Of a stretch of DNA of 47,250 bases, positions 16,165 through 42,586 are shown in pieces. The translations under genes and the position numbers were made by a program. The notes under the pieces were generated by a model. It saw only the letters and a list, made by a program, of their open reading frames with translations, ran no database searches and was not told the origin of the DNA. Position 1 is the first letter of the stretch. Every line of letters begins with the position of its first letter. Source of the stretch: a virus. The DNA is taken from the UHGV virus genome UHGV-1363746; one strand, 5' to 3'.

Positions 16165-16193
16165 TTGACGTAGATATGGTGGTGGTGTAGATT
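16165..16193 (+). promoter_or_regulatory. rightward early promoter TTGACG-N17-TAGATT
   Basis: TTGACGtagatatggtggtggtgTAGATT. Extra GTAGAT copies occur at 16091-16125. Confidence 0.6.
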
Positions 16194-21578: not shown

Positions 21579-21607
21579 AATCTACATCAGTTGCAATTCT
21601 ACGTCAA
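21579..21607 (-). promoter_or_regulatory. leftward early promoter TTGACG-N17-TAGATT
   Basis: Minus strand reads TTGACGtagaattgcaactgatgTAGATT. Confidence 0.55.
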
Positions 21608-27369: not shown

Positions 27370-27810
27370 GTGAAAAAGCGATTCAAGCAGCATGAGCTGA
27401 GTGACAAGGTATTAATTTTTGATGATGGTTACCGTGGCGAGTGTCCGCATGAGGATTCAGACTTGATAGCGTTTAAGTGGTGGATGGATTACCGGTTTCC
27501 TGATGTTCTGTGGTTCCATCCGTCTCAGGAGACTAAAAGCAACTCAGTGCAGCATCTGGCATCGCGCGCAAGGAAAGGTGTCAGGTCAGGGGTATCTGAT
27601 GTGATAATCCTGACTCCTGGTGGTGCGTGGCATAAAGCGACGATAGAGTTGAAGCGACACGATTCAACGCTTAGCAAATGGCAACCAGGACAGATACCGT
27701 TTCTCAACGATAGCGCCAGCGCTGGTGCATTCTCTGCGGTGGCGTGTGGACTCGACCAGATAAAGATTGCAGTGTTGACGTATTTCGGCTTGCCTTTTGA
27801 TGTGGATTGA
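27370..27810 (+). CDS. VRR-NUC domain nuclease
   Basis: PD-(D/E)XK core: SDVIIL...ATIELK. Commonly partnered with phage SF2 helicases. Confidence 0.6.
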   Translation: MKKRFKQHELSDKVLIFDDGYRGECPHEDSDLIAFKWWMDYRFPDVLWFHPSQETKSNSVQHLASRARKGVRSGVSDVIILTPGGAWHKATIELKRHDSTLSKWQPGQIPFLNDSASAGAFSAVACGLDQIKIAVLTYFGLPFDVD

Positions 27811-27818
27811 TGTAGATT
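27790..27818 (+). promoter_or_regulatory. rightward promoter TTGCCT-N17-TAGATT
   Basis: TTGCCTtttgatgtggattgatgTAGATT followed by the GAGGTGATGAAGATG leader. Confidence 0.45.
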
Positions 27819-39787: not shown

Positions 39788-39816
39788 TTGACACCTGCCG
39801 GGCTGTGATGTAGATT
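39788..39816 (+). promoter_or_regulatory. rightward promoter TTGACA-N17-TAGATT
   Basis: TTGACAcctgccgggctgtgatgTAGATT followed by the AATGAGGTGAG leader. Confidence 0.55.
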
Positions 39817-40742: not shown

Positions 40743-40770
40743 AAAGCCCCTTTCGGGGCTTTTCTTTATC
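40743..40770. terminator. bidirectional rho-independent terminator
   Basis: aaagcccctttcggggcttttctttat. Confidence 0.6.
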
Positions 40771-41485
40771 AGGATACGGTGCACGCCGTGCTGATAATAA
40801 TTTCCGGGTCAGTGGACGAATCCGTGACCGTAACGGTATATACACCAGCAGTAGGGCTTGCCAGAGATGCGCCTGATTCGCCGCCAACAACTACGCCATC
40901 TTTGCGCCACACGTAGGTGTAAGGAGAGACACCACCTTCAACAGCAACAGTTAACGGGCTGCCAGTGCTACCAGTTGATTGCAGGTCGGTAGTGAACGAC
41001 AGAGGTTCAAGGCTTTCTACGGTAACGCTGTCAGAATCATAAACCTTGAATTCAAGGCTGCCAGTCACAATGTCGTTCGTGCCACCTTCGTAGCTGATGC
41101 TGGTGATGTTGCAGTACGCGGTAACGATAGTTGCACCAGTCACCTGACGCACCCACAAGGAAGGCTGGCGACGCGATTTCAGTTCAGTGGCGTAAATCTC
41201 AACCAGACGATGGAAGCCAAACTCATCGCTCGGGTCATTCTTGCGGATTTCAACCTCTGCACTGATGGTCATATCAGAGCTGGTAACGAGAGTGGAAACA
41301 AAGCCGCCAGCGGTATCCGCTTCCGACGTAGTGGTCTGCGGCGAGTAGTCAACACCCTTACTGGTGGTTGAGCCTAAATACTTCCAGTCTCCCGCCTCCG
41401 GAACTGCGTCACCGCACCCTTCAGCAAGGAACAGTCGGGTCATGCGACCGACCAGAACGCCTTTATCATTTGCACAAATAGCCAT
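40769..41485 (-). CDS. major tail protein with C-terminal Ig-like (Big_2-like) domain
   Basis: 238 aa. The C-terminus VSPYTYVWRKDG...GVYTVTVTD is Ig-like. Strong terminator downstream. Confidence 0.55.
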   Translation of the reverse strand: MAICANDKGVLVGRMTRLFLAEGCGDAVPEAGDWKYLGSTTSKGVDYSPQTTTSEADTAGGFVSTLVTSSDMTISAEVEIRKNDPSDEFGFHRLVEIYATELKSRRQPSLWVRQVTGATIVTAYCNITSISYEGGTNDIVTGSLEFKVYDSDSVTVESLEPLSFTTDLQSTGSTGSPLTVAVEGGVSPYTYVWRKDGVVVGGESGASLASPTAGVYTVTVTDSSTDPEIIISTACTVS

Positions 41486-41520
41486 TTCGATCTCCGAATT
41501 GTGTTAGCTGCTAACGTGGT

Positions 41521-41529
41521 GATTATATC
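41521..41529 (-). promoter_or_regulatory. extended -10 promoter TGATATAAT for the major tail gene
   Basis: Minus strand reads TGATATAAT about 35 nt upstream of the major tail protein ATG. Same geometry as at 39765. Confidence 0.45.
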
Positions 41530-41536
41530 ACAGGTG

Positions 41537-41565
41537 TTGACAGTGATTATTTTGTGGTGTAGATT
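41537..41565 (+). promoter_or_regulatory. rightward promoter TTGACA-N17-TAGATT driving a non-coding transcript
   Basis: TTGACAgtgattattttgtggtgTAGATT. Confidence 0.55.
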
Positions 41566-41571
41566 GTATTT

Positions 41572-42218
41572 CAGATGGTTTTCGTGAGCGACTTTGCGGA
41601 CTTTTTAGAAACTGACCACAAAGATAAATGCAAACGATGATGTTGTTCTGATGGCGGCGTAATAGCCTGTAAGTCAGCAAGGTCTTCCGATTCCTTGTAA
41701 ACAAATTCGGCGCAGTGGCCCGCTGTGATTAATAATGGGCACCTACCAATGAGAGCATTGTGATTGATCGTCGTTCTTGCGCGCAAAGTCTGTTCGAAGA
41801 TAGTGCTCTCTTTAGTGGGTAACAACGGGCATGCCGCCTTAGTAAATCCCGCACAGGTGCAGCGAATAATCCGGTAATGTCGTTGCCGTAAGCCACACGA
41901 AACGTGGCACGCAACAGGTAAGAGCATTGAATGTTGACTGGCTTAGCATACCAAATCCAACATTGTTGCAGCAGTGCTCTTTCCGTTGTGGTAATGCGGC
42001 TATGCGCACGCGGCAAGATGAAACGCACTCCATTTGAATGTTGCCTGCTGGAGTCATCGACCAGCAATCTGGAGGCACCAGAGCCACAACACTTAATATC
42101 CAGCATTATCGCAATCATATGTAGGGGTATGTATGGGTTACGGGGCTGGATATTAAGAAAGCACGCTGGCAATGCTTAAACCAGCAATAAGGCCGCCAAG
42201 TGCGGCTTTATTTATTTC
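41572..42218 (+). ncRNA. candidate ~650-nt structured non-coding RNA (novel, unnamed)
   Basis: Bounded by a consensus promoter and an intrinsic terminator. No ORF with an RBS and no protein-like ORF on either strand. Two tandem ~170-nt modules (41746-41915 and 41916-42085) share AGAGCATTG...AGTGCTCT stems and GGTAA..CGG..ATGC blocks, with compensatory internal hairpins. Confidence 0.4.
42188..42218 (+). terminator. rho-independent terminator
   Basis: ggccgccaagtgcggc followed by tttatttattt. Confidence 0.55.
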
Positions 42219-42586
42219 ACAACCCGCAAAAGCAACTCATGCACTGGTCTTTTTTCTTCCGTCAGCATTGGTCTTCCCAGTGGAGCCTGCAACTGGATGT
42301 AGTTAACGCATGAATCAATCGGGTGAGTTTTGATGTATTCGATAATCTCATTGGCCTTCGCATCAACATCAGACACGTTGCATTGACCACGTTTACCAAC
42401 AACGTACAGCGAGAAATAGAAGTCACCGCCGAGGCCATCCATCACCTGCGTGCCTCCATTGGATTGCAGGACAATAAATTGCTCGTTGCCATCTCCGGTG
42501 TCATTCCAGAACTGTAACTGCGAAGTCCAGCCATCATATAATCCGGCATCCTGAAGGTAAGCATCAACCAGCTCAAGCATATTCAT
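42212..42586 (-). CDS. tail completion/terminator-like connector protein (putative)
   Basis: 124 aa, last of four small coupled neck genes. Confidence 0.35.
   Translation of the reverse strand: MNMLELVDAYLQDAGLYDGWTSQLQFWNDTGDGNEQFIVLQSNGGTQVMDGLGGDFYFSLYVVGKRGQCNVSDVDAKANEIIEYIKTHPIDSCVNYIQLQAPLGRPMLTEEKRPVHELLLRVVK

Follow-up and report, generated by a model that had tools for sequence, protein, structure and literature searches.

What does a phage keep in a 726-bp stretch of its tail cluster that holds no gene? The question is raised by the viral genome UHGV-1363746, of which 47,250 nucleotides of one strand were analyzed (the window). A first-pass annotation of the gap at 41486-42211, sized there at 725 bp and placed in the minus-strand virion operon, had described a promoter-to-terminator non-coding unit with two tandem structured modules. 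The gap is real, and its most conserved and most informative stretch, 41573-41745, lies upstream of those modules and had been missed. This element of ~173 nucleotides, called here the T unit, makes up the first part of the predicted transcript. It joins a template resembling that of transfer-messenger RNA (tmRNA) to a 5' arm that is antisense to the tmRNA of the host. The coordinates of its parts and of the other features of the gap are collected in Table 1.

A tmRNA-like template

The template of the T unit is recognized by its reading frame and by what precedes it. GCA followed by nine codons and a stop is found in 174/174 T-unit instances, and the last codon of the tag specifies alanine in 173 of them (proline in the other), with all four alanine synonyms in use. 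The tags fit the pattern AND/ANE..[LMRK]x[AV]A; besides that of the window, examples are ANEEMYLAVA, ANDDLMMVAA, ANDEQFLAVA, and ANDNVFLAVA, and the tag of E. coli tmRNA is ANDENYALAA. As in tmRNA, the tag frame is short, ends in a hydrophobic, alanine-rich, degron-like sequence, and has its stop codon within a hairpin that resembles helix 5. Aligned diverse T units share the invariant block TAAATGCAAACGA. The determinants upstream of a tmRNA frame are also in place, as 34 diverse T units have A(-4) without exception and U(-5) almost without exception. On tmRNA, the corresponding A86 is the main determinant of the frame, together with U85 (PMC2481249).

The frame is followed by the helix-5-like hairpin and by two well-supported H-type pseudoknots, PKa and PKb; the pseudoknot PK1 of tmRNA is absent, and the region upstream is unpaired. 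Across this whole structure, 92% of the cells in the alignment are paired and 18 of 26 pairs have changed on both sides (109 cells). Not one shuffle in 500 attained the observed covariation score, and slid controls were paired in at most 46% of cells. In PKa, where 97-99% of cells are paired, CAAGG/CCTTG is exchanged for TGAGG/CCTCA or CGGGG/CCCCG in one stem and CCGA/TCGG for CCAG/CTGG or CCAA/TTGG in the other. In PKb, columns 174 and 192 pair as C-G in 18 sequences, G-C in 8, and U-A in 7, and stem S2 is longer, again with compensation, in phage Ag3 and in locus L031. Stem S1 of both pseudoknots is independently recovered by RNAalifold. The covariation that the first-pass annotation had proposed to look for in homologs is present.

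Kinship with tmRNA can be seen in both directions. Rfam matches at the T unit are to tmRNA families only, all below threshold: tmRNA_permuted at 27.9 bits against a gathering threshold of 47, and beta_tmRNA at 13-18 bits against 84. When a covariance model is built from the T units instead, its top non-self match is the tag frame and helix 5 of E. coli ssrA, in register, at 13.1 bits.

A 5' arm antisense to host tmRNA

Ahead of the template lies an arm that matches the reverse complement of host tmRNA, represented in all comparisons of the arm by E. coli ssrA (L176). By Smith-Waterman alignment, the arm of the window and the reverse complement of ssrA share 28/38 identities (p = 0/200). The duplex predicted by RNAduplex between 41575-41610 and ssrA 64-107 has an energy of -34.8 kcal/mol, compared with -15.6±3.3 kcal/mol for shuffled sequences (z about -5.9), and this site is the best one for the arm in the whole tmRNA. 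It takes in host A86, the -1 triplet, the resume codon G90-C91, and codons 3-5. The arms of other T units behave alike, with 28-32 identities to the reverse complement of ssrA 68-106, a mean score of 35 against ~16 for shuffles, and duplex energies of -27 to -39 kcal/mol in five subfamilies. For example, where the reverse complement of ssrA reads AGTTTTCGTC--GTTTGCGACTATTTTTTGCGGC-TTTTTA, a prophage-type T unit reads AGTTTTCGTCACGTTAGCGAC-----TTTGCGGACTTTTTA.

The complementarity is directed at the host and not at the T unit itself. At a score cut-off of 29, the 99.9% null threshold, 93 of 105 distinct T units reach at least this value against host tmRNA, compared with 0/105 against their own templates; the score of the arm with the template of its own unit is 16, which is background. 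Codons 3-6 of the T unit differ from those of the host where the arm binds, which keeps the arm from closing on the template of its own unit. It is the sole segment of the gap that is significantly antisense to ssrA, and within the T unit it is highly conserved and left unpaired by RNAalifold (alignment columns 1-117). The arm is thus predicted to be accessible, and its match is both beyond chance and specific to its target, as would be asked of an antisense RNA acting in trans. Were the duplex to end at U68, 22 nucleotides would remain to the resume codon of the T unit, and the distance from G67 to G90 in the host is likewise 22 nucleotides.

Two other interpretations of short segments were set aside. 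A 5' motif, GGTTTTCGT, had been considered an analog of the tmRNA D-loop and was abandoned, the whole arm being the reverse complement of ssrA 68-106. Block C, further downstream in the gap, was considered a second antisense segment (to ssrA 21-30 and 256-268), and its match is not significant.

Absence of a tRNA-like domain

A tmRNA is defined by a tRNA-like domain with an acceptor stem carrying G3·U70, a T-arm, and a 3' CCA, none of which is found in the T unit. ARAGORN reports no tmRNA or tRNA in the 47-kb window and no tmRNA around any T unit, and a custom scan for a T-arm, an acceptor, and NCCA found nothing credible in the window. Around T units in other phages, the same type of scan returned ordinary tRNAs only. 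Possible acceptor remnants in the window, TTACGGGGCTGG (42137) and GGAGGCACCA (42070), and a G·U in an A stem were dropped, since neither the G·U position nor a CCA is conserved. Because it has no tRNA-like domain, the T unit falls outside the definition of tmRNA. We conclude that it is a tmRNA-derived RNA without this domain, belonging to an undescribed family, and not a tmRNA.

It is conceivable that the missing domain is encoded separately. In this case, the T unit would be the coding piece of a split tmRNA, its acceptor would come from a tRNA-like module or elsewhere in the phage, and the complementarity to host tmRNA would be a relic of an inverted duplication. Two-piece tmRNAs do occur in nature (PMC11915505), and humlepung, a Felix O1-like phage, has directly after its T unit a tRNA-like unit that lacks a D-arm (L007 1664-1746). 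That unit has the acceptor CGGGGCG/CGCCTCG (C1-G72, G3·U70), A73, and an encoded CCA; it scores 31.7 bits with the Rfam tRNA model, is missed by ARAGORN, and could be the alanine-accepting partner of the T unit in that lineage. The module B elements found beside T units, and some inserts of the A cassettes (both described below), are tRNA-derived as well. The arrangement in humlepung is not a general one, however: a chargeable tRNA-like domain is found nowhere in the 47 kb, and the units of P1 and HK620 also lack one. A helix-2-like intramolecular partner for the 5' region was sought (for instance CGCAAAGTC at 41782), with no consistent partner across subfamilies. The arm itself argues against a relic, as it has kept its complementarity to the host while its own template diverged, pointing to selection. 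We regard a split tmRNA as improbable for this phage.

Proposed modes of action: template substitution or inhibition of tmRNA

A template that lacks a tRNA-like domain needs access to one, which fits an arm that grips host tmRNA. The reading that we put forward, tentatively and with rather more doubt than conviction, is that the phage RNA docks on host tmRNA and substitutes its own template, amounting to a tag swap in trans; from the sequence features we infer that the duplex forms in vivo, that the phage tag is translated, and that the phage benefits. The single-stranded 5' arm would pair with host tmRNA nucleotides ~64-107, and the resulting duplex (~35 bp) would sequester A86, the resume codon, and the first five codons of the host. 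About 20 nucleotides past the duplex, at a spacing that matches host nucleotides 68-89, the T unit would offer its own U(-5)A(-4), GCA, and the 10-codon frame ANDDVVLMAA, after which the helix-5-like hairpin and the two pseudoknots would come. The alanyl-tRNA-like domain, SmpB, and EF-Tu would be host components, combined with a phage template. Rescued ribosomes would then add the phage-specified tag in place of ANDENYALAA.

Several points weigh against such a swap. The case for it is drawn from sequence, and we know of no ribosome that resumes on a template held to tmRNA by base pairing only. The side duplex of ~35 bp would also open up part of PK1, and it may either prevent ribosome entry or be cleaved by RNase III. 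The phage tags are similar to that of the host, clouding the selective benefit of an exchange, and conservation of the reading frame could come in part from the constraints of the helix-5 hairpin. In addition, the spacing from arm to resume codon varies from about 15 to 22 nucleotides across subfamilies.

Alternatively, the T unit may be a natural inhibitor of tmRNA, with the arm blocking trans-translation or triggering cleavage of tmRNA by RNase III. The tmRNA-like 3' part would then remain untranslated and act as a decoy for S1, SmpB, or RNase R, or as a stabilizing body. The antisense complementarity of the arm fits this explanation equally well, and no unprecedented behavior of the ribosome is needed. 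By synthetic antisense oligonucleotides, tmRNA is kept from acting and from releasing stalled ribosomes (PMC3384345). In mycobacteriophage DS6A, a partial tmRNA consisting only of the tRNA-like domain is thought to interfere with host trans-translation and resembles a proven tmRNA inhibitor molecule (PMC4131195, PMC11915505). What inhibition leaves unexplained is the maintenance, across divergent subfamilies, of U(-5)A(-4)-GCA, a fixed number of 10 codons, degron-like ends with synonymous alanine codons, and a stop in the loop. A pure inhibitor needs no conserved tag frame, and docking with template substitution is favored for this reason. Inhibition is the main rival explanation, and we judge it unlikely, though well worth weighing.

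Distribution and genomic context

A sensitive BLAST search with the gap matched 907 phage records and brought out a widely shared core. Most matches are restricted to query positions ~89-275 (~41574-41760 of the window), with identities of about 71-96%. T units are spread over hundreds of unrelated enterobacterial phage genomes, among them HK620 (P22-like), P1, Ackermannviridae, Felix O1-like phages, 7-11, Nonanavirus, Pollock, and Klebsiella siphophages such as VLCpiS13c. They are also found in E. coli, where 656 of 5426 complete genomes (about 12%) have the segment, at 150 chromosomal places and 554 on plasmids. Among the 30 E. coli T units listed, none has an RNA annotation and two lie beneath a "hypothetical protein" call.

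The surroundings of the T unit differ from phage to phage and are often rich in tRNA genes. For 127 instances fetched from IMG/VR and GenBank (120 of them from IMG/VR), all 148 tRNAs called by ARAGORN between 600 nucleotides upstream and 1500 nucleotides downstream lie on the strand of the T unit. In 22 related loci, Rfam reports nothing but tRNAs at gathering thresholds. The segment lies within the tRNA cluster in Felix O1-like phages and upstream of tRNA genes in P1 and Ag3. In HK620 it is part of the late leader, with pR'/qut on one side and the tQ terminator on the other, and in the one lambdoid prophage examined the T unit has, as in HK620, the Q antiterminator and the holin gene on either side. 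An array of a T unit, A cassettes, and B modules fills this leader from pR' to the terminator both in HK620 (L004 1238-1945) and in an E. coli prophage (L178 3645-4718). The pR' leader of lambda is constitutively transcribed as 6S RNA. Lysogens may thus express the T unit all the time, with altered tagging if it acts on tmRNA.

Further RNA elements are seen in two of these phages. P1 (L006 2683-2803) and Ag3 (L005 2219-2328) have sub-threshold matches to STnc100, a Salmonella small RNA, at 37.8 and 33.7 bits against a threshold of 47; both lie in tRNA-linked non-coding regions and on the strand of the T unit. In Ag3, a gene-free stretch of 1.85 kb upstream of tRNA-Ser (L005 850-2706) contains, along with the T unit, several degenerate structures that resemble tRNAs. 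One of these, at 1300-1375, has the acceptor GGCGAGG/CCTCGCC and the T-arm GTGTGGTTCGATTCCACAC and is not called by ARAGORN.

Relation to known RNAs

The T unit is closest to tmRNA (SsrA; RF00023, permuted RF04321, RF01849-51). Both have U(-5)A(-4)-GCA, a tag of 10 codons that begins AND and ends in a hydrophobic residue, Ala/Val, and Ala, a stop in the loop of helix 5 or its equivalent, and H-type pseudoknots after it, and both occur in phages beside tRNA genes. Unlike tmRNA, the T unit has no acceptor stem, T-arm, CCA, or PK1 and only two downstream pseudoknots, and it carries the arm antisense to host tmRNA where the 5' half of the tRNA-like domain would be. The coding piece of the two-piece tmRNAs of alpha- and beta-proteobacteria and cyanobacteria is a further parallel, being a template not covalently joined to the aminoacylated end, with a partner held by pairing (as is proposed for the T unit). 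The surroundings of the T-unit resume codon (aUAAaUGCaAACGAuAA) are nearest to the consensus of these two-piece, circularly permuted tmRNAs. However, both pieces of a two-piece tmRNA come from one gene and pair to rebuild the tRNA-like domain, while the proposed partner of the T unit is a complete host tmRNA and the pairing would extend over the host template.

The DS6A form is likewise a partial phage tmRNA, but a mirror image of the T unit in that it keeps only the tRNA-like domain. The arm finds its likeness in the anti-ssrA oligonucleotides of cell-free translation and ribosome display, which are antisense to the template region of tmRNA; these are man-made DNA with continuous complementarity and without a template. 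The classic oligonucleotide (…GTAGTTTTCGTCGTTTGCGACTA) presumably covers the same stretch as the arm. Other phage and prophage non-coding RNAs that are co-transcribed with tRNAs or arise from late leaders, namely T4 species 1 and 2 (rnaC/rnaD), stable small RNAs of a phage tRNA cluster, and the prophage anti-sRNAs AgvB and AsxR, act on host RNA. They have no sequence or structure kinship with the T unit, and none is tmRNA-like or known to target tmRNA.

In the 2014 tmRNA database paper, phage tmRNAs are named only from mycobacteriophages and Bacillus phage G (PMC4131195), and 79 phage sequences are counted in that of 2025 (PMC11915505). These pipelines rely on ARAGORN, BLAST, and Rfam models (PMC4131195, PMC11915505); the T unit escapes both ARAGORN and these Rfam models. 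Nothing relevant came up in full-text literature searches that covered the tag peptides, tmRNA-like RNAs of phages, and natural RNAs antisense to tmRNA. The phage tmRNAs in the searched literature are mostly complete, chiefly from mycobacteriophages, with one form reduced to the tRNA-like domain, and the T unit is the template half only. It lies unannotated in the model phages P1, HK620, Felix O1-like, and Vi1-like, as well as in hundreds of E. coli prophages and P1-like plasmids.

Almost all bacteria carry out trans-translation, a process that also serves as an antibiotic target. Should the T unit act on tmRNA, phages and prophages would commonly be manipulating ribosome rescue, and this may bear on old observations of phages that depend on tmRNA.

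The gap as a probable transcription unit

The gap is flanked by the minus-strand major tail gene (40769-41485) and by a gene at 42212-42586 whose product matches Phage_tail_terminator_3 (PF23842, E = 1.4e-40). It is non-coding, as the first-pass annotation had held: its open reading frames have 0 matches in PHROG or Pfam, and no frame stays open over 34 diverse homologs of its conserved part. The plus-strand promoter and terminator assigned to it were likewise borne out. The promoter belongs to a local motif family, TTGAC[AG]-N13-[AG]TGTAGATT, the further copies of which (Table 1) are probably the early or middle promoter set of the phage. Immediately 5' of its T unit, the Klebsiella siphophage VLCpiS13c has an identical promoter, and a Felix O1-like phage has the promoter TTGACA-N17-TATAGT in this place. 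Judging from the promoter position, transcription would start at ~41572. The U-tract of the terminator shares positions with the tail-terminator gene's stop codon, which is on the opposite strand. The gap thus appears to be a plus-strand non-coding RNA operon of ~645 nucleotides (~41572-42217), which would be transcribed from an early-type promoter and processed.

Table 1. Features of the gap and copies of its promoter motif, in window coordinates
Feature	Position	Strand	Description
Sigma-70-type promoter	41537-41565	+	TTGACA-N17-TAGATT; promoter scan, 10/12 consensus matches, top site of the region
Further copies of the promoter motif	16165-16193, 21579-21607, 27790-27818, 39788-39816	+, -, +, +	Motif search; copy at 39788 perfect
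T unit: anti-tmRNA arm	41575-41610	+	~36 nucleotides, conserved, unstructured; reverse complement of E. coli tmRNA nucleotides ~64-107
T unit: A-rich linker	41611-41629	+	U(-5) 41625 and A(-4) 41626 (tmRNA U85 and A86); alignment of 34 T units
T unit: tag frame	41630-41665	+	GCA AAC GAT GAT GTT GTT CTG ATG GCG GCG (ANDDVVLMAA), then TAA TAG; comparison of 174 instances
T unit: hairpin equivalent to tmRNA helix 5	41648-41677	+	Stop codons in apical loop; compensatory changes in 6/8 pairs
T unit: H-type pseudoknot PKa	41678-41710	+	S1 41678-41682/41693-41697; S2 41687-41690/41707-41710
T unit: H-type pseudoknot PKb	41711-41740	+	S1 41711-41715/41723-41727; S2 41718-41721/41737-41740
Cassette A1	41741-41820	+	Stem ACCTACCAATGAGAGCATTG / TAGTGCTCTCTTTAGTGGGT around a 40-nucleotide variable insert; inverted repeat I1; -28.6 kcal/mol, z = -3.9
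Conserved block C	41821-41909	+	GTAACAACGGGCATGxCGCCTTAGTAAATCCC...CCACGAAACGTGGCAC; common to L001, L002, L008, L012, L014, L074, L090, and E. coli prophages
Cassette A2	41910-41991	+	Stem CGCAACAGGTAAGAGCATTG / CAGTGCTCTTTCCGTTGTGG around another insert; inverted repeat I5; -28.9 kcal/mol, z = -2.9
Module B, tRNA-derived	41985-42090	+	Closing helix GTTGTGG/CCACAAC; hairpin GCTGG-AGTCATCGA-CCAGC at 42047-42065
13-bp perfect hairpin	42092-42157	+	CTTAATATCCAGC / GCTGGATATTAAG; inverted repeat I3; fold z = -4.9; in L063, L075, L080
Intrinsic terminator	42186-42217	+	GCCGC-CAAGT-GCGGC then TTTATTTATTT; GC hairpin at 42192-42206; 11-bp hairpin on folding

The window phage is most closely related to Buchananvirus-like siphophages (Sa179lw, Sf11, and Bas77-81 of the BASEL collection), in which the gap is either unannotated or covered by "hypothetical proteins". 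Genes of this kind overlie the T unit and the stem cassettes on the opposite strand: Bas81_0063 and Bas81_0062 (L001 2586-2942 and 3076-3417) and PJ16_048 (L002 2417-2854). They are probably annotation artifacts, and annotators are now placing spurious "hypothetical proteins" over T-unit RNAs.

Records with hypothetical proteins in the gap could be taken to mean that it is a decayed protein gene or junk. The location opposite the tail operon and a terminator hairpin common to the minus strand would in turn suit a cis-antisense regulator of virion read-through, a role that the first-pass annotation had offered. We give almost no credence to either. A decayed gene is contradicted by the lack of a conserved frame and of any PHROG or Pfam match, and the compensatory changes demand RNA structure. 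Regulation of the tail genes found no evidence: the modules are conserved in unrelated phages and in quite different genomic contexts, on the strand of neighboring tRNAs, and the function of the gap is for this reason independent of its position opposite virion genes. An anti-defense role, also raised in that annotation, may apply to the gap RNA; the concrete lead is a different one, consisting of a tmRNA-like template and an arm against host tmRNA.

Downstream modules

The prediction of a novel, large structured RNA survives in part. The locus is structured and non-coding from promoter to terminator, with covariation, but it is not a single RNA of two tandem modules of ~170 nucleotides. No long direct or tandem repeat is found in the gap, the block GGTAA..CGG..ATGC said to recur in both modules shows a weak resemblance only, and the actual units are A1, block C, A2, and the tRNA-like module B. 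The covariance search proposed for the region returned no Rfam family at gathering thresholds in the window, and the downstream modules have no Rfam family match.

The two stems AGAGCATTG...AGTGCTCT that the first-pass annotation had picked out are genuine and correspond to inverted repeats I1 and I5. Their differing interiors also proved to be a general property, since in other phages the same stem surrounds unrelated inserts: across the 127 fetched loci, the cassette stem GGTAAGAGCATT...AGTGCTCTTTCC encloses 89 different inserts of 20-190 nucleotides (e.g., in L014, L020, and L061), and the stem variants among loci are compensatory. Some A inserts carry canonical T-arms (GGTTCGAATCC) adjoining the 3' strand. 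A hammerhead-like core, GCGCGC-CTGACGAG-TCCATGAGGGA-CGAAAC-GC...GTC, in the A insert that follows the T unit of L061 was not confirmed at Rfam gathering thresholds.

Module B keeps only the layout of an acceptor-like helix and a T-like hairpin. An anticodon loop and a CCA end are missing from it, and the gap has no ARAGORN or Rfam tRNA match. Seventy-nine B modules have perfect closing helices of 9 bp with compensatory variants. Their 5-bp hairpin usually adjoins the 3' strand directly, and several have a true T-loop (TTCGACT or TTCGATT); in the window, the hairpin lies 18 nucleotides upstream of the 3' strand. Canonical D- and T-arms are found in L067.

The A1 and A2 cassettes, block C, module B, and the 13-bp hairpin, which is specific to Buchananvirus-like phages, probably serve in processing or stability, as do the tRNAs beside other T units. 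Targeting of host genes by modules A, B, and C was considered and set aside, as BLAST against the 5426 E. coli genomes matched unannotated prophage DNA only. Stem cassettes with hypervariable inserts and tRNA-derived modules form a second layer of phage RNA biology at these loci. In the close relatives Bas81, L075, and L048, one or two plus-strand tRNA genes lie between the 13-bp hairpin and the terminator; those of Bas81 are tRNA-Ser and tRNA-Arg, at the end of the same gap (L001 3442-3611). The window phage has none here, and the locus thus gains and loses tRNAs.

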